A stretch of 50,870 bases of DNA from a virus (Duplodnaviria; Heunggongvirae; Uroviricota; Caudoviricetes), in IMG/VR virus record IMGVR_UViG_2645727821_000011, one strand, 5' to 3'. Under the pieces are notes generated by a model. It saw nothing but the letters and a program-made list of their open reading frames with translations. It ran no database searches and had not been told where the DNA came from. Of this stretch, positions 32,272 through 37,852 are shown piece after piece; the first letter of the stretch is position 1, and every line of letters begins with the position of its first letter. The position numbers and the translations under genes are program-made.

Positions 32272-33087
32272 ATGAGCAAAAACTTTTTTCAATCCGGGGC
32301 ATTTTTGGGGAATGGACTGTCCCGTTTCGCTTTGAACTCTGATCCTGTGCAGCTGATGGAGTCTGCCCGAGCAAGCGCCGAACCGCCAACAGATCCGGTT
32401 ATTAATAATAATCCGGAACCGGCGGCACAGACTAACGATAACGTTCCATCTGCCCCGGCTCCTGAGCAAATCCTGGAAGGGAAAGACGGTAAAGAATGGA
32501 CCGTCGAACAGGCGCACCAGATGATTCTGGAAGCTGCAAATCGAAGTGCTATGCAGAATGCGTTGAGTGATGCGGCCGACGCCGTTTTCGCCTGGGCTGA
32601 TAGCGGTGATCTGACTTTCGACTCCCTTGATGGTTTCGTTCAGGCTATCGCTGGTATCTCTGATGACGACGACGCCGAAGTTACAGAAGAACAGGACGAT
32701 GCCTATAACGAAGCATGGGCAAATGTTGCTGACTTCCTCGCAGCATGCGGTGTAGATGATGACCTGATCGAAGCACTGGCTGACGATGAAGACGACGACG
32801 CAGCCGCTGATGTTGGTGCCTCTATCGCTGGTTTAGATAGCGACGACCGTGACGAACTGGAAGCGGCGTTTGTTGTAGCTGGCACTTCTGATGAAATGCT
32901 GACTGAAGCATTTAAGAAGGTTGTTCGTAACGGTGAGATCAAACTCATCCGTAAACGCCTGCGTAAAAAACGTCTGACTGCGGCTCAAAAATCGGCGCTG
33001 AAAAAAGCGCGTCGAAAAGCCCAGACCGGCGCGGCAAAACTTGCCCGCAAAAAGTCAATGAAACTGCGCCGTAAGCGCCTTGGCTAA
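32272..33087 (+). CDS. acidic structural protein with Lys/Arg-rich C-terminal tail (271 aa)
   Basis: ORF with AAGGGAA RBS. Confidence 0.55.
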   Translation: MSKNFFQSGAFLGNGLSRFALNSDPVQLMESARASAEPPTDPVINNNPEPAAQTNDNVPSAPAPEQILEGKDGKEWTVEQAHQMILEAANRSAMQNALSDAADAVFAWADSGDLTFDSLDGFVQAIAGISDDDDAEVTEEQDDAYNEAWANVADFLAACGVDDDLIEALADDEDDDAAADVGASIAGLDSDDRDELEAAFVVAGTSDEMLTEAFKKVVRNGEIKLIRKRLRKKRLTAAQKSALKKARRKAQTGAAKLARKKSMKLRRKRLG

Positions 33088-33122
33088 AGGAGGAGGCCGG
33101 AGAACTCCGGCCTTTAACTTGA

Positions 33123-33704
33123 ATGGCACCTATACCTTATGGGGTTTACAGCCAGGCTGACGGTGTATCGCCATTTCTGAAAGTTACTTTAACGAACTCT
33201 CAGTACCAGGTTACCGGATATATCAGCCAGGGGGCAGCAATGAATATGGCCCAGAATTGGGAAGCGCCGTTTACCGGTATGTCCATGGGGTCTGTTGCTG
33301 GTGCTTTCAGTGGTTTTGCGCAGGTTGGTACTGAAACAACGTCGGTGGCCCGTTGGAACAGCTTAATGGTTTGGGAGGGGGGAACACCGCCGACTTTCAC
33401 GCTGCCAGTAACTTTCATCGCTTTGTTTGACCCATTCACGGAGGTTTCAGGAGCTATCGCCGCATTGTCAGCGATGATTAGCCCGGAACTTAAAGATGCC
33501 AGTATTGGTGGTCGAATCCCGGAGCGTGTGACGCTAAACATTGGTCGCCGGATCAACATCATTGATGTCGCTATCCAGGACATAAGTTTCGATCTCGATG
33601 CGCCCAGGGACAGCAATGGGCATTTCCTGAAAAACACCGTCAACCTCCAGTTGACCGGTTCTTCGATATATAACAGCTCCGATATTGTTCGGGCGTTCCA
33701 GTAA
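33123..33704 (+). CDS. tail tube-like / baseplate tube-type protein (193 aa)
   Basis: ORF; composition resembles myovirus tube family. Confidence 0.5.
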   Translation: MAPIPYGVYSQADGVSPFLKVTLTNSQYQVTGYISQGAAMNMAQNWEAPFTGMSMGSVAGAFSGFAQVGTETTSVARWNSLMVWEGGTPPTFTLPVTFIALFDPFTEVSGAIAALSAMISPELKDASIGGRIPERVTLNIGRRINIIDVAIQDISFDLDAPRDSNGHFLKNTVNLQLTGSSIYNSSDIVRAFQ

Positions 33705-33715
33705 AAGGATTTTAT

Positions 33716-34225
33716 ATGGGGCACAATAACACTAAGGGAAACCGTAAATTTATTAAGGGCCGCTATACTGCCAACGCGGCCAAAGGCGAACGACTGGTAT
33801 CTTCTGAATTCCAGCTCACTTTTGCAGGCCATGAAGATATCAGCGTACTGGTTCGCACGTCGCAAATTCCTGAAATGACCCGCGAGGATGTGGAGGACTA
33901 TGGTCCGAATGGTGTGAAGTTCAACCAGCACGGACCAATTCGAAACTCTGGGGAAATCCAGGTCCAGTGCGTGGAGACTATCGAAGGCGATATTCTTCAG
34001 TTCATCAAGGATCGCATTGCGGCGAAGGACTATGTTGATATCACGATGGCTGCTACCCCTGAATCCAAATCTTCCGGGGTTAACGCTGTAACAAAAGCTG
34101 CTACAACAATTGAAATGTTGGACTGCAAAATCTACAGTGATGCAATCGACTTTAGTACCGAAGATGTGACTGCCGCTGTGCGCCCGTCACTTCGTATCGT
34201 CTACAACTGGATTGAGTGGGATTAA
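33716..34225 (+). CDS. tail tube-like protein (169 aa; T4 gp19-like C-terminus)
   Basis: ORF; C-terminal IVYNWIEWD. Confidence 0.5.
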   Translation: MGHNNTKGNRKFIKGRYTANAAKGERLVSSEFQLTFAGHEDISVLVRTSQIPEMTREDVEDYGPNGVKFNQHGPIRNSGEIQVQCVETIEGDILQFIKDRIAAKDYVDITMAATPESKSSGVNAVTKAATTIEMLDCKIYSDAIDFSTEDVTAAVRPSLRIVYNWIEWD

Positions 34226-34244
34226 GAGTCATCCCTTGTATTTT

Positions 34245-34270
34245 AAAGCTCCTTCGGGAGCTTTTTTATT
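34245..34270. terminator. bidirectional intrinsic terminator
   Basis: AAAGCTCC-TTCG-GGAGCTTT then TTTTATT. Confidence 0.55.
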
Positions 34271-34341
34271 TGGAGATGAAAGGGTGCATTGAGGATACCT
34301 GACACACTAAGAGTGGCGGAGATCTCTCCCCGCCAGGTCTC

Positions 34342-34497
34342 TTACCTTTCAGATTCGTAGGCTGTGAAGACAGTGACCTCCGTCTGGCCGGTTCGGATTC
34401 GTACCTCGCAGAGGTCTTTCCTCGTTACCAGTGCCGTCACAATGACGGTTAAACAGATGACGATCAGAGCGATTAACATCGCTTTTTGCTGCTTCAT
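34342..34497 (-). CDS. hok: Hok/Gef-family type I toxin (51 aa) MKQQKAMLIALIVICLTVIVTALVTRKDLCEVRIRTGQTEVTVFTAYESER
   Basis: near-identical to E. coli HokD/RelF as I recall it. Confidence 0.7.
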   Translation of the reverse strand: MKQQKAMLIALIVICLTVIVTALVTRKDLCEVRIRTGQTEVTVFTAYESER

Positions 34498-34555
34498 AGC
34501 CTGCTTCTCCTTGACCTTTTGGTCGGTAAGAGGCTAATCTACGTATGCTAAGCAT
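34349..34555 (-). CDS. mok-like overlapping leader ORF of the hok locus
   Basis: 68-aa ORF starting upstream of hok and overlapping it out of frame. Confidence 0.4.
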   Translation of the reverse strand: MLSIRRLASYRPKGQGEAGYEAAKSDVNRSDRHLFNRHCDGTGNEERPLRGTNPNRPDGGHCLHSLRI

Positions 34556-34620
34556 AGATATGGCCTCAGATTAATGTTAAGCGTCTTGCAGGACGCGTAA
34601 TGTTATCTGGGGCTTTCTTC
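34545..34620 (+). ncRNA. expected position of a Sok-like antisense RNA opposite the mok start (not delimited)
   Basis: hok-family architecture; TTGACC -35-like element at 34516; boundaries are guesses. Confidence 0.2.
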
Positions 34621-34678
34621 TATCTGCTTTTCGGGTAATGCCTGAAGCAGATAGCCTCAAGCACCCGCAACGATTGTA

Positions 34679-34924
34679 TCAATGTCTGGCTTTTTTTCTA
34701 TAGAAATCACCTGGAAGGGTGAATATCCACATCAGAAGAAATGTTGCAGCAAACATGATCCCTAATGGCCAGACCGCGCCAAAGAAAATCCATACTAAGA
34801 TCTCCTCTGCTCGTTCTTTGCGGTCGATATCGACAAGCATTTTTCGGCTGATCATGTATACACAGAAGCCAATACAAACATATCCTGCAAAAGCGATCGC
34901 TAACTGTAAAAAATCAGATTGCAT
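34679..34924 (-). CDS. small two-helix membrane protein (82 aa)
   Basis: ATG with GAGGT RBS; hydrophobic segments. Confidence 0.4.
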   Translation of the reverse strand: MQSDFLQLAIAFAGYVCIGFCVYMISRKMLVDIDRKERAEEILVWIFFGAVWPLGIMFAATFLLMWIFTLPGDFYRKKARH

Positions 34925-34974
34925 CTCCGACCTCAAACTGAAAACGCCAGGTGACTCCAGATTAGAGCAATCTA

Positions 34975-35820
34975 TCACCCTCTGAATCCTGCCGGTATAC
35001 CCCATTGTTCGTTATCTTTATTTTTGGCTAAAACCGCATTAAGAGCTTCGTTTACCGTCATGCAATGCGGCAGATTATCGAAGTTTGATATCCCGCCAAT
35101 ATCAGGAGAACGCTTGTCCTTCAGGTAAGCATATTTCCGCGCTGCCGCCTCTACTTTCTGCTTGAACTCATGTTTTTGAGCGCGTTTTTTGGATAACCGC
35201 AGATTGTCAGCCTTTGCTTTTGCCTCAGCGATCCATGAAGTCAATTTTTTGAGTCTGGTCGTTCCGGCACCGCCGGAAACTGATCTTTTTGTTTTTTTAA
35301 CTTGTGACTTCTTATTCTTTATTGCCACGTCATCCTGACAGGGGGAGGGGGTATCATTTTGACATGGGGGTGTGGATAAAAAATTAAATAAAGCCAATGT
35401 CTTAGCGAGAACAGCTTTAACCTTGGTTGCCGCTGAAGAGATCTTTAATTTGCTTTCAATCAGCGCATTTTTGGCTTGTTGTGCGAAGGCCAAAAAGGAT
35501 GGTGTAAACCGGTACAGGTTAGCGCGACGTTCACGGTGATCGCCGATAACAATCTCTACAGACAGGATTCCTTTGTTTACAGCTTCACGGAATGCACGAA
35601 CGACGGTTGATTGGCTATAACCAGTTTCTGCCGCGATCAGGCGGTGAGGCTTGTGAATGAAGTATTCACTGGTTGTTGCCGCGAGATTTGCACATTGCGA
35701 CAGGATATGCCAGGCGCTACGGGATAGACCGGAGTGTGTTACAAAGCAGGCCAATTCATAGCCAGAAAAAGTAAAATCGCTCATCGTTATACAGCTCAGG
35801 AAAGTGACTTTAGCCAGCAT
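34975..35820 (-). CDS. repL: lytic replication initiator RepL (contains oriL)
   Basis: recognised as P1 RepL; downstream of kilA. Confidence 0.8.
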   Translation of the reverse strand: MLAKVTFLSCITMSDFTFSGYELACFVTHSGLSRSAWHILSQCANLAATTSEYFIHKPHRLIAAETGYSQSTVVRAFREAVNKGILSVEIVIGDHRERRANLYRFTPSFLAFAQQAKNALIESKLKISSAATKVKAVLAKTLALFNFLSTPPCQNDTPSPCQDDVAIKNKKSQVKKTKRSVSGGAGTTRLKKLTSWIAEAKAKADNLRLSKKRAQKHEFKQKVEAAARKYAYLKDKRSPDIGGISNFDNLPHCMTVNEALNAVLAKNKDNEQWGIPAGFRG

Positions 35821-35849
35821 TACAATGCTGGTGGTTCTTACTACGTCTG

Positions 35850-36650
35850 TTAGCGCGTTGCCGCGACAGGTACCAGCACACCAGCATCAAGCAATCGCTT
35901 CATCAGCCACTGCTGACCCTTGCCGGTTATACGAGTCGTGAAAGAAATCCTGCTTCCATTGCTTGTATCGATCACGGTTTCTTTAAGGGTGAAATACCCA
36001 CGGGATATGTATTCTTGTTTGGGGACGTTCCTGCGTTCACCGGTTGCGATCAGAATTCCGTTATCACGCAACCAGGTGAAGAGATAGTTTTGGCCCAGGC
36101 CGAGCACTTTGGCATAGTTGCCGATTAGAACCCCGCTGGCGGTAGCAACGCGTTCGGCGAATTCGACTTTAGGTGCATCCATAAGCATTTTTTGCTCCAG
36201 CCGTTGCTTTTGCTCTGCCAGGTCGGCAGCCAAACGGAGAGCTTCAGGGAGACTCTGCGGAATAGCAGGTTGTAATCTTCCGGCTCGATAGTCGATAAAT
36301 GTCTGGTTTACCTTCAGCCGAAACGCGGGAGAAATCCAGCCTGCGTACTCCACAGCGAGCAATTCATGGGCAAAAGTGCCGCCGCCACGGCCTTCGAACG
36401 AAACTATGCAATTCTGCATAGTTTCTTTTTCAAGCTCTTCGATGAGCTGTTTTGCTGACAGCGTTCTTAGCCATTGAGCTGGCGCTTTATGGGCACCGAG
36501 TCCGCTCGCTCTGTGTAGAGCATTAAGGTTGTAACGGCCAGCGCGGTCGGTCGTAATTTCAACACCACAAATAACGGGCAGAGTGGTTGAAGGATCGACA
36601 TTTTGATGAAGGTTTGATATATTCATATCCGCATTGAATGTTTGTTGCAT
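35850..36650 (-). CDS. kilA: KilA (KilA-N domain with antirepressor-like C-terminus)
   Basis: C-terminal half paralogous to Ant C-terminus. Confidence 0.8.
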   Translation of the reverse strand: MQQTFNADMNISNLHQNVDPSTTLPVICGVEITTDRAGRYNLNALHRASGLGAHKAPAQWLRTLSAKQLIEELEKETMQNCIVSFEGRGGGTFAHELLAVEYAGWISPAFRLKVNQTFIDYRAGRLQPAIPQSLPEALRLAADLAEQKQRLEQKMLMDAPKVEFAERVATASGVLIGNYAKVLGLGQNYLFTWLRDNGILIATGERRNVPKQEYISRGYFTLKETVIDTSNGSRISFTTRITGKGQQWLMKRLLDAGVLVPVAATR

Positions 36651-36720
36651 TTTTTCTCCAAATTTGCATCAACCTTCAATCACCAGCTCGAAATGGTGAT
36701 TCTTTGCACTTAGAAAACGA

Positions 36721-36737
36721 AATTTATTAGAGCAAAT
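36721..36737 (-). promoter_or_regulatory. C1 operator-like site ATTTGCTCTAATAAATT upstream of kilA-repL
   Basis: consensus core match. Confidence 0.55.
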
Positions 36738-36814
36738 TTTTCTGACTCGATCCAGATCGGGTTGGACGATCTGCTCAGAAACCTGCCAGTTTGCTGGCAG
36801 GTTTTTTTCTTTTG

Positions 36815-37852
36815 TTAACCTATTGCTACTGGTTTTAACAAACCAGCATCAAGTAGCTTGCGAGTTAACCACTGCTGGCCTTTACCCGTTAATTGGGGCG
36901 TCAGCCGTATCTGGTAGCCATTTTCATCATCCAGCACCACTTCTTTCACCGTGAAATACCCGGCGTTGATGTACTGTTGGCGCGGTACGTTTTTGCGCGC
37001 ACCAAAAGCCATGAGAATGCCGTTCTGGCGCAACCATGAGAAAAGGGCGTTTTGCTTAAGTCCAACGACCTTTGCAAAGTTCCCGATCAGGATTCCATTA
37101 GCCACTGATACCCGGTCGGCAAAATCGACTTTAGGGGCTGCGGCCACCAGCTGTTGTTCCAGCTGCATTTTCTGTTCTGCCAACTCGGCAGCCAGGCGTA
37201 GAGCTTCTGGTAATGTTTGGGGGATCGATGGGGCAGGGGAGTTTGCCTGCTGCAATTCTTCCAGTTTGTCGATCAGCGAACGGCGGACCGCTTTTGACTC
37301 GCGCGCGGCGACTCGCAGGGCTTGTTTGAAAGTCATGGTTATGACAAGCATTGATGTTTTGTTCATTTTTTCCACTACACTTTTTGTGTAGTGCTCACCA
37401 TCAAGCTCATCGAGTATTTTTTCGATGAATTTGTTGTTCCGAACCTCTGGTTCCCCACATAACTTACGCGCTTCATTGACCATCTTTAACAGTGTCAGGC
37501 TGTCGATTGTGTCTCCGGTGTTGGAGATAACATTCACTGCTGGTGATGGCGTAGCTGAAGCAACAGGTGCTGGTTTTTCAACATTCAAATTATTACCGGT
37601 CATTCTGCGCGCCTCCTTTCTCATTTCTGCTGCCACTGTTGCGTAACGTAGACGTCCTTGTTCAATCAAATAATCCCTGATCTCGGCTATCAGTAGCCTG
37701 TTGATCACAGCCTTATCTGTTCGGGTATAAAAACGTCTGGTTATCATGAAATAGTTGGCAATTGCGCCGGGGATCTCCCGTGTCGGCATACAGGTTGTAT
37801 GCAAAGCGATCGCTTCGGCTATTTCATTACGGGTGACGAGAGGTGTTTTCAT
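36815..37852 (-). CDS. ant: antirepressor Ant (Ant1, with internal in-frame start for Ant2)
   Basis: recognised as P1 Ant; ATGA coupling with icd. Confidence 0.8.
   Translation of the reverse strand: MKTPLVTRNEIAEAIALHTTCMPTREIPGAIANYFMITRRFYTRTDKAVINRLLIAEIRDYLIEQGRLRYATVAAEMRKEARRMTGNNLNVEKPAPVASATPSPAVNVISNTGDTIDSLTLLKMVNEARKLCGEPEVRNNKFIEKILDELDGEHYTKSVVEKMNKTSMLVITMTFKQALRVAARESKAVRRSLIDKLEELQQANSPAPSIPQTLPEALRLAAELAEQKMQLEQQLVAAAPKVDFADRVSVANGILIGNFAKVVGLKQNALFSWLRQNGILMAFGARKNVPRQQYINAGYFTVKEVVLDDENGYQIRLTPQLTGKGQQWLTRKLLDAGLLKPVAIG

Follow-up and report, generated by a model that had tools for sequence, protein, structure and literature searches.

The minus strand of the window (the whole stretch of 50,870 nucleotides analysed here) very probably carries, at positions 34700-34245, a type I toxin-antitoxin cassette of the hok/mok/sok kind, intact and belonging to the hokD/hokW lineage of lambdoid prophages. 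The cassette is located in the variable region of a P1-like phage-plasmid between the bplB terminator and repL, and its likeliest role is post-segregational killing. All sequence elements of such a locus were found in place, and their features are not a chance pattern. The first-pass annotation had read a hok/mok-type type I toxin locus next to repL. As far as sequence can tell, toxin, mok frame, Sok gene and fold-back pairing all bear this out. The position next to repL (34975..35820, minus strand) held approximately, as an 81-aa open reading frame, orf81 (34679..34924, minus strand), intervenes. The cassette itself is not new: public records already contain the family, the RNA mechanism and the exact sequence, and the site has been published as a variable region.

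Toxin gene and overlapping mok frame

The hok gene was found at 34342..34497 on the minus strand and encodes a peptide of 51 aa, MKQQKAMLIALIVICLTVIVTALVTRKDLCEVRIRTGQTEVTVFTAYESER. The hallmarks of the family were present, namely a length of about 50 aa, a single N-terminal transmembrane helix and a conserved Cys. Assignment of the product to the Hok/Gef toxins, already made from the letters alone, was supported by a match to the Pfam model HOK_GEF (PF01848; 78.7 bits, cutoff 22, E=2.4e-22) and by a match of 110.7 bits to phrog_251, 'MokW-like host killing'. NCBIfam Hok models also matched, yet under their curated cutoffs (49.5 versus 73). Compared with HokW, the toxin of the Stx2 phages Sp5 (VT2-Sakai) and 933W, codons 1-41 of hok contained five synonymous and no non-synonymous changes, a pattern in the coding sequence which points to purifying selection on the peptide. 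Conservation among P1-like plasmids was dropped as evidence of selection, because their backbone is young and shared and is 96-99% identical throughout.

The mok-like frame described in the first-pass annotation was recovered as an open reading frame of 68 codons at 34349..34555 on the minus strand, which spans almost all of hok in another frame. Its ATG (34553-34555) is preceded by a GAGG Shine-Dalgarno sequence 8 nt upstream, and the frame matched phrog_37205 with 75 bits. The layout is that of the out-of-frame Mok in an IncFIA/IncFIC plasmid locus (L009), which encodes an R1-type Hok peptide. In 933W, by contrast, mok is in frame with hok and yields an N-terminally extended Hok. The frame differs here because of one extra base, the A at 34514 (TTGACC versus TTGCCT in 933W).

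The hok mRNA and the Sok antisense RNA

A candidate hok/mok promoter was found by consensus scan at 34673..34700 on the minus strand (TAGAAA, 16-nt spacer, TACAAT; 9 of 12 consensus matches), with a TG at 34680-34681 forming an extended -10. Of its two boxes, the -10 belongs to the stretch with homology to 933W and the -35 to the 3' end of orf81, the TGA stop of which falls within the extended -10. Transcription is predicted to start at about 34666, which coincides with position 1 of the Rfam model RF01794. The leader matched this model over its full length (34492..34666, minus strand; 114.9 bits, gathering score 59, E=1e-26). The same model matched seven reference hok loci with 87-114 bits, including those with R1-type Hok peptides. 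Alignment to Hok family and hok/sok RNA models, which had been proposed as a check in the first-pass annotation, was therefore positive for both the peptide and the RNA. Further Rfam matches near the locus were below threshold and were dismissed: CRISPR-DR46 on the terminator hairpin (25.9 bits versus 50), ceN48, sbrA, and a 21-bit match of the 'sok' model on the plus strand.

The leader opens with a 5' stem-loop (34609..34665, minus strand), seen as an inverted repeat, as the first helix of the RF01794 alignment and in the predicted fold. The 10-bp inverted repeat of the structured leader, noticed in the first reading, is exact, with copies at 34620-34629 (CTATCTGCTT) and 34645-34654 (AAGCAGATAG), and it forms the core of a 21-nt imperfect repeat (34609-34629/34645-34665). 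At the very 5' end of the mRNA lies tac, GGGUGCUUGAGG (34655..34666, minus strand). According to the folds, tac can pair with three partners: the fold-back inhibition element fbi in the inert form, nt 51-58 (the upstream complementary box, ucb) in the active form, or a local 5' hairpin. fbi, GGUAUCCUCAAUGCACCC (34282..34299, minus strand), was recognized as an inverted repeat complementary to tac and is situated 43 nt past the hok stop.

In the minimum-energy fold of the 424-nt mRNA, nt 1-12 were closed on fbi (34282-34294), with -164.6 kcal/mol and a z-score of -8.2. The tac-fbi duplex alone gave -21.9 kcal/mol, a value reached by only 1 of 500 shuffles. Fold-back elements, the absence of which would have spoken against the locus according to the first-pass annotation, were thus found. 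The pairing recurs, with covarying sequence (GGGUGC:GCACCC versus GGCGC:GCGCC), 43-52 nt past the stop in five of the seven other hok loci, namely in 933W and in four plasmid loci that are more distant. For the two loci with R1-type peptides, it could be seen by eye and was not statistically separated. The isolated 5' 60 nt folded into the tac-ucb hairpin of the Rfam consensus (-26.9 kcal/mol, z-score -5.2). For the truncated 370-nt RNA, the minimum-energy fold showed a different 5' hairpin, the alternative hairpin spanning nt 1-34. A GC-rich stem-loop directly past the hok stop (34314..34335, minus strand) was identified as an inverted repeat, and the minimum-energy folds contained it. Its homologue in plasmid R1 is the GC hairpin at which the active hok mRNA, once processed, has its 3' end.

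The Sok antisense RNA is predicted to be about 70 nt long and to be encoded at 34547..34620 on the plus strand. A reading of the Rfam 'sok' match as Sok on the minus strand was rejected; the consensus of that model ends in the hok AUG, and in every reference locus it is the sense leader that the model fits. Homology to the annotated sokW of 933W (1767-1837 of the reference locus L003), which maps to 34547-34617, accordingly put Sok on the plus strand. The predicted RNA begins with an unpaired 5' tail, which is followed by a long hairpin (34562-34614) and then by UUUCUUCU; it is complementary to the start codon of mok and the preceding Shine-Dalgarno sequence. Its terminator hairpin folded with -33.2 kcal/mol and a z-score of -5.8. 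A candidate Sok promoter was read from the sequence at 34511..34540 on the plus strand (TTGACC at 34511-34516, 18-nt spacer, TAATCT at 34535-34540), where the homologous position in 933W has TTGCCT-17-TAACCT, upstream of the annotated sokW. The base responsible for the shifted mok frame also alters the -35 and the spacer of this promoter, which is 17 nt in 933W and 18 nt here. The generic promoter scan did not flag the Sok promoter, because its -10 matches the consensus at only three of six positions. On the opposite strand, the Shine-Dalgarno sequence of hok (AAGGAG, 34507-34512) shares positions with the -35. A Sok promoter and terminator opposite the mok start, which the first-pass annotation had advised looking for, are accordingly both present as predicted elements.

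The 3' end of the cassette is different from what had been supposed. A hairpin with an 8-bp stem and a 4-nt loop is present at 34245-34264, and the first-pass annotation had taken it for part of a bidirectional terminator at 34245-34270. The hairpin is real; the bidirectional reading did not stand, as the T-run and the terminator scan flag were found on the plus strand only and the hok strand has AAAAUAC. It is the intrinsic terminator of the P1 backbone past bplB, and P1 homology continues through it to 34267. A consensus search for a minus-strand terminator past fbi gave none, the sole hairpin there (34245-34264) having no U-tract on the hok strand. Plasmid R1 has a strong intrinsic terminator immediately past fbi. 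933W, a functional relative, also has no recognisable terminator there, and a terminator directly past fbi is therefore a feature of R1 and not a family-defining one. The native 3' region has not been retained, as homology to the lambdoid cassettes stops at fbi (34282).

Relatives and insertion site

The closest relative is hokW-mokW-sokW of Sp5 and 933W, with 87% DNA identity over 34282-34678 and 47 of 51 identical Hok residues (92%). The order of elements is shared, and in both cases the carrier is a temperate phage. hokW-sokW is toxic, with its Sok RNA as the neutralising partner, and in Sp5 it is a toxin-antitoxin system of type I which aids lysis on induction (PMC8621323). The flanks differ from 933W, as it is the P1-like element that supplies the hok -35 and all sequence 3' of fbi.

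The hok/sok locus (parB) of R1 fits the cassette well in organization. hok, the overlapping out-of-frame mok, a Sok promoter at the homologous position, the tac-fbi end pairing, the GC hairpin past the stop and the Rfam family are shared. The Hok peptides are about 42% identical and the DNA has diverged. A plasmid-stabilising function is proven for R1 hok/sok, whereas it is putative for the cassette described here.

The name hokD rests on PGAP naming and on 96% protein identity to HokD of E. coli K-12. The chromosomal hokD (relF) of K-12, which shares the PGAP name, lies in the Qin prophage. K-12-type copies match only 34282-34511, which covers the open reading frame and the 3' part, and are without mok start, Sok gene and leader; unlike them, the present cassette has the full regulatory region. 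The HokD coding sequence was toxic in one study (preprint 10.1101/2025.08.07.668861).

Blastn against NC_005856 (P1) and 933W, together with the junction sequences, delimited a 693-bp segment (34268..34960). It replaces 1826 bp of P1 and consists of the hok cassette of lambdoid type (34282-34678) and orf81. orf81 encodes a small predicted membrane protein, is also called as a PGAP CDS and has a full-length match to phrog_3772 (181 bits); among the phages of the collection, only P1-like ones carry it. At this position NC_005856 carries pmgF, rlfB and rlfA and no hok, in agreement with the first-pass annotation, which knew of no such locus in canonical P1. The suggestion that the module was acquired fits in so far as it is acquired relative to P1. 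Eight variable regions have been published for P1-like phage-plasmids, and the site is one of them (PMC9603915). Between the bplB terminator and repL, the P1 genes ('variable region 5') and the cassette segment take one and the same place, which is recognised as replaceable cargo (PMC9603915), and their gene content is wholly different. SJ46 carries another set at the same site, with a 210-aa open reading frame, an orf81 homologue and a Lom-like protein.

The arrangement of the window was found in 216-261 of the 507 PLSDB plasmids with P1 repL. The possibility that the locus had gone unannotated was not upheld. Every listed plasmid record from the NCBI pipeline carries the PGAP name 'hokD: type I toxin-antitoxin system toxin HokD', and the phage record MH422554 names the gene 'MokW'. 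In many P1-like plasmids, for example pMCR-1-P3, an IS4-family insertion lies between the hok stop and fbi. A literature search found no paper naming hok/sok in P1-like phage-plasmids, the nearest being an 'antibacterial toxin' (PMC6906374). PMC13596339, PMC8085198, PMC10101111 and PMC9748602 were set aside as concerning other plasmids or as false matches.

Proposed mechanism and role

The mechanism proposed here is inferred from homology to R1 hok/sok and Sp5 hokW-sokW. A constitutive promoter would give a stable mRNA of about 420 nt, in which tac pairs with fbi near the 3' end, and the full-length RNA closed in this way would be neither translated nor bound by Sok. Slow 3' trimming would strip fbi, upon which the 5' end would refold onto ucb and expose the mok start, and translation of mok would drive that of hok. 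As long as the plasmid is present, the short-lived Sok of about 70 nt, made from a stronger promoter on the opposite strand, would pair with the mok start region and mark the RNA for cleavage by RNase III. Once Sok synthesis stops, due to plasmid loss, transcription shut-off or possibly prophage induction, the stored mRNA would be translated and Hok would collapse the inner-membrane potential.

Unlike in Sp5 and 933W, the host element is a plasmid prophage, and post-segregational killing is therefore possible. Killing of this kind, stabilising the unit-copy plasmid prophage alongside phd/doc, is the likely role of the cassette on the present analysis. phd/doc of P1 presumably serves this purpose too, by killing cells from which the plasmid prophage has been lost. 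Its sequence and mechanism are unrelated, as it is a type II system with a protein antitoxin and a Fic-domain toxin. phd/doc is absent from these 50.9 kb and is present in the other half of a plasmid that is 100% identical across the 1-kb junction. With phd/doc already in P1-like plasmids, a second system would be redundant, which speaks against a stabilising role. Chromosomal hok loci with intact elements show neither post-segregational killing nor activation by rifampicin (summary in 10.1101/2025.08.07.668861). The only role tested for the closest relative is help in lysis, not stabilisation (PMC8621323).

A possible alternative, to which we give roughly a one-in-three chance at best, is that the same molecular system was selected for help in lysis on induction and not for addiction; this is compatible with post-segregational killing as the best explanation. 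Inactivation of C1 would lead to loss of Sok, and Hok would depolarise the membrane before holin and endolysin act, giving faster or greater release. In Sp5, of which the hokW-sokW locus is the one with 87% identity to the cassette, sokW RNA vanishes on induction by mitomycin C or heat in a RecA-dependent manner, HokW appears about one hour before endolysin, and deletion of hokW-sokW halves the released phage (PMC8621323), although the effect is only about twofold. The location fits as well, as the cassette is directly 3' of the lytic operon kilA-repL-orf81 on the same strand and the scan found a single weak terminator-like site in the gap (5-bp stem at 34722..34707). Read-through from the operon would then meet the Sok promoter head-on. 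Both the read-through and the promoter interference are only conjectured, however, and P1 has its own holins, antiholin and lysozyme, which are annotated in a related plasmid.

The location could also allow dual use, which we regard as unlikely: the cassette would serve addiction in lysogeny, and on induction read-through from the C1-repressed kilA-repL-orf81 would silence the convergent Sok and free Hok as an early lysis helper. If true, the trigger lacking so far for the loss of sokW RNA on induction of Sp5 would be accounted for, as would the frequent presence of hok in a hot spot beside the lytic replicon.

It is quite unlikely that the cassette is mainly an abortive-infection or exclusion module, as the first-pass annotation had offered besides addiction. 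A lytic phage would shut off host transcription, Sok would decay and Hok would kill the cell. High-copy R1 hok/sok cut the plating efficiency of T4 by 42% and gave smaller plaques (cited in PMC8621323), and P1-like elements have a hot spot for cargo at the insertion site. On the other hand, hok is not enriched beside defence systems (10.1101/2025.08.07.668861). The PADLOC defence-system models gave no match for Hok or orf81 at E<=0.01, and P1 is unit-copy, whereas the weak effect of R1 depended on a high copy number. Activation of hok mRNA in R1 takes tens of minutes, which is slow compared with the T4 infection cycle.

Very unlikely is an inert passenger, intact in sequence and silent, carried along with a successful backbone lineage: the inactivity of intact-looking chromosomal hok loci in post-segregational killing (10.1101/2025.08.07.668861), the replaced native 3' end, the tolerated IS4-family insertions and the lack of the cassette in about half of the P1-like plasmids would agree with it, but all regulatory elements and both reading frames are intact, change in codons 1-41 relative to HokW is synonymous only, and hokW-sokW, the closest relative, is demonstrably active (PMC8621323).

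P1-like phage-plasmids serve as vehicles of mcr-1 and ESBL genes, and about half of them carry, in addition to phd/doc, a second putative addiction system that could aid their persistence. Records of P1-like plasmids annotate the hok coding sequence only; mok, Sok RNA and tac/fbi can now be placed by coordinate. With the cassette beside the lytic replicon, it can be tested simply whether hok/sok on phages serves prophage stabilisation, help in lysis or both.

Elements of the hok-type locus

A complete hok-type set of elements was found on the minus strand at 34700-34245, and from sequence the identification of the locus as a hok-type toxin-antitoxin system is confirmed. The 51-residue product that the first-pass annotation had called a Hok/Gef toxin (34342..34497, minus strand) matched Pfam HOK_GEF with 78.7 bits (cutoff 22, E=2.4e-22) and PHROG 251, 'MokW-like host killing', with 110.7 bits. 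The proposed overlapping mok-like frame is a 68-codon ORF (34349..34555, minus strand), which begins upstream of hok, covers almost all of hok in another frame and carries the Shine-Dalgarno sequence GAGG 8 nt before its ATG. The structured leader was recovered as an end-to-end match to Rfam RF01794 (34492..34666, minus strand; 114.9 bits, gathering score 59, E=1e-26), so that the protein family and RNA models suggested for checking the locus were both matched. The 10-bp inverted repeat described in the leader is exact (34620-34629 and 34645-34654), and the first hairpin of the leader is built around it. Although RF01794 is named as the 'sok' antitoxin, its consensus terminates in the hok AUG and it matched the sense-strand leader in seven reference hok loci (L003, which is the phage 933W locus, L005-L009 and L012), including both plasmid loci with an R1-type Hok peptide. 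RF01794 therefore marks the hok mRNA leader and not the Sok strand; read literally, the match would give the wrong strand for Sok.

The Tyr47 codon of hok (34357-34359, minus strand; context CCUACGAAU at 34354-34362) lies in UACG, as at TadA A-to-I editing sites. Such editing was reported at hokB, hokC, hokD and hokE, where Tyr is recoded to a disulfide-forming Cys (PMC12214031). The codon context suggests that toxicity of the window Hok may be partly dependent on RNA editing.

Predicted Sok RNA and folding of the hok mRNA

Sok is placed on the plus strand, where the annotated sokW of phage 933W maps to 34547-34617. A search for a Sok promoter and terminator opposite the mok start had been suggested, and both were found at the sequence level. 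The candidate promoter (TTGACC 34511-34516, 18-nt spacer, TAATCT 34535-34540, plus strand) is homologous in position to that of 933W, and the fold predicted for Sok RNA consists of a free 5' tail and a long hairpin followed by UUUCUUCU (-33.2 kcal/mol, z -5.8). Sok is antisense to the Shine-Dalgarno sequence and start codon of mok. The mok AUG itself lies in a hairpin of the predicted mRNA fold, and the Sok 5' tail is complementary to the loop of this hairpin, CUUAGCAUA. At 34514 on the plus strand the window differs from 933W by 1 nt (TTGCCT in 933W, TTGACC in the window), with two effects. In 933W mok is in frame with hok and gives an N-terminally extended Hok, 'MokW', whereas in the window it is out of frame, as in the IncFIA/IncFIC plasmid locus with an R1-type peptide (L009). 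The same base brings the -35 of the window Sok promoter nearer to consensus than that of 933W, with a spacer of 18 nt.

From the candidate hok promoter (34700..34673, minus strand; TAGAAA, 16-nt spacer, TG-a-TACAAT), transcription is predicted to begin near 34666, the first position of the RF01794 model. For tac, the first 12 nt of the mRNA (GGGUGCUUGAGG), three pairing partners were predicted. In the minimum-energy structure of the predicted 424-nt full-length RNA (-164.6 kcal/mol, z -8.2 against shuffles) tac pairs with the fold-back inhibition element fbi, CCUCAAUGCACCC (34282-34294). In the isolated 5' 60 nt it pairs with nt 51-58, the upstream complementary box, matching the Rfam consensus (-26.9 kcal/mol, z -5.2), and in RNAs without fbi nt 1-34 were predicted to fold into a local 5' hairpin. 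We take these three folds as similar to those described for R1 hok mRNA in its inert, active and metastable states.

Pairing of the mRNA ends was tested against chance in eight loci: the window, 933W, two IncF loci with an R1-type peptide, and an IncI2, a Fukatsuia, a Klebsiella IncF and an Enterobacter plasmid. The 5' 16 nt were paired with the 170 nt past the hok stop codon and compared with 500 shuffles of the 5' end. Six of the loci had their best duplex 43-52 nt past the stop codon, matched by at most 9 of the 500 shuffles in each; the energy of the window tac-fbi duplex, -21.9 kcal/mol, was reached by one. The paired sequences vary by lineage (GGGUGC:GCACCC versus GGCGC:GCGCC). In the two R1-type-peptide loci the algorithm picked a bulged duplex no better than shuffles; fbi, GAAGCGCC, is visible by eye in both.

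A GC-rich inverted repeat forms a hairpin 3' of the hok stop codon (34314-34335, minus strand). Of the bidirectional terminator annotated at 34245-34270 the hairpin stands, but the bidirectionality is not supported. The 8-bp hairpin (34245-34264) is a consensus terminator for the plus strand only, in the direction of bplB, and is followed on the hok strand by AAAAUAC. It belongs to the P1 backbone, since P1 homology spans hairpin and T-run and stops at 34267. The window locus differs from an R1-type-peptide locus, which has a strong terminator past fbi; at the 933W locus no recognisable terminator was found past fbi.

Replacement in the P1 backbone and distribution

The window is a P1-like phage-plasmid, and the locus is flanked by BplB (33716..34225, plus strand) and RepL (34975..35820, minus strand). 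Homology to canonical P1 (NC_005856) covers 32500-34267 and 34961-37495, and 693 bp of the window stand in for 1826 bp of P1 with pmgF, rlfB and rlfA, in agreement with the first-pass remark that no hok locus is known from the canonical P1 annotation. The left breakpoint lies directly past the terminator T-run. The right breakpoint falls within the C1 operator Orlf (Op55), of which the first 11 nt, ATTGCTCTAAT, are kept (34961-34971, minus strand); the operator reads ATTGCTCTAATTATAAC in P1 and ATTGCTCTAATCTGGAG in the window, and the PrlfA promoter of P1 is lost. Further matches to the C1-operator consensus ATTGCTCTAATAAATTT with 0-1 mismatch were seen at 18997-19013, 22519-22535 and 36720-36736 (all minus strand) and elsewhere in the window, one perfect match overlapping a second site on the opposite strand (18986-19013).

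Within the replacement, the hok cassette (34282-34678) is of lambdoid type, 87% identical to 933W and 91% to a Rac-type phage. The segment 34679-34960, between repL and hok, holds orf81 (34679-34924, minus strand), an 81-residue predicted membrane protein of the function-unknown family phrog_3772, confined to P1-like phages in the phage collection. The extended -10 of the candidate hok promoter includes the TGA stop codon of orf81. A 44%-identical homologue occupies the same position in Salmonella phage SJ46 (NC_031129.1 12300-15400), where the bplB-repL slot is filled by a 210-aa ORF, this homologue and an outer-membrane protein resembling Lom, and has no hok. Other plasmids carry further cargo variants in this slot. 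The annotation of pMCR-1-P3 (L014 1216-2328) places an IS4-family element of the IS421/IS186 type in the interval from bplB to hok. Homology to the window starts again at 34321, within the GC-rich hairpin 34314-34335 and between the hok stop codon and fbi, so that the toxin ORF is separated from the fold-back element. The match breaks at the same point in further PLSDB plasmids.

The hok family is among the best-studied toxin-antitoxin families. The whole arrangement was present in six records of the phage collection, one of which calls the gene 'MokW'. P1-type repL was found in 507 PLSDB plasmids; of these, 216 contain 80% or more of the 1-kb bplB-hok-orf81-repL junction and 261 contain 80% or more of the 750-bp replacement, a share of roughly 43-51%. 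All PGAP-annotated records among the matches listed name the gene 'hokD: type I toxin-antitoxin system toxin HokD'. This cassette lineage occurs in 4739 of 5426 complete E. coli genomes, mostly chromosomally, at ~88-91% identity. K-12-type hokD copies match 34282-34511 only and thus lack the mok/Sok region. The Citrobacter plasmid CP057748.1 has a relB-relE-hok arrangement at which the RF01794 leader was not found, which parallels K-12 relBEF (hokD), where hok has lost the mok/Sok control region. The region 'rlfA, rlfB and pmgF' is among eight regions with high variability in P1-like phage-plasmids (PMC9603915), and the window locus is a common, already annotated variant of it. In the literature on P1-like elements no paper was found naming the module hok/sok or testing its function there.

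Possible role of the cassette

Among tested systems, the nearest relative is hokW-sokW of the Stx2 phage Sp5, with HokW identical to the window Hok at 47 of 51 residues; over codons 1-41 the two differ by five synonymous changes only. Sp5 HokW is toxic and localised to the inner membrane, and is neutralised by sokW RNA, partly via RNase III and Hfq (PMC8621323).

With function inferred from homology throughout, post-segregational killing is judged the most likely role of the window cassette, because its host element is a unit-copy plasmid prophage. For R1 hok/sok post-segregational killing is proven. Several chromosomal hok loci did not mediate it (summarised in 10.1101/2025.08.07.668861). Help in lysis upon induction, compatible with post-segregational killing, is a serious alternative: on induction of the Sp5 prophage sokW RNA vanishes and HokW builds up, and deletion of the locus delayed growth arrest and halved phage release (PMC8621323). 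That the cassette acts in phage exclusion, or is inert, appears less likely. The type II addiction module phd/doc was not found within the 50.9-kb window and is present in a plasmid 100% identical over the junction. Post-segregational killing by the cassette, as the favoured role, would add to phd/doc.
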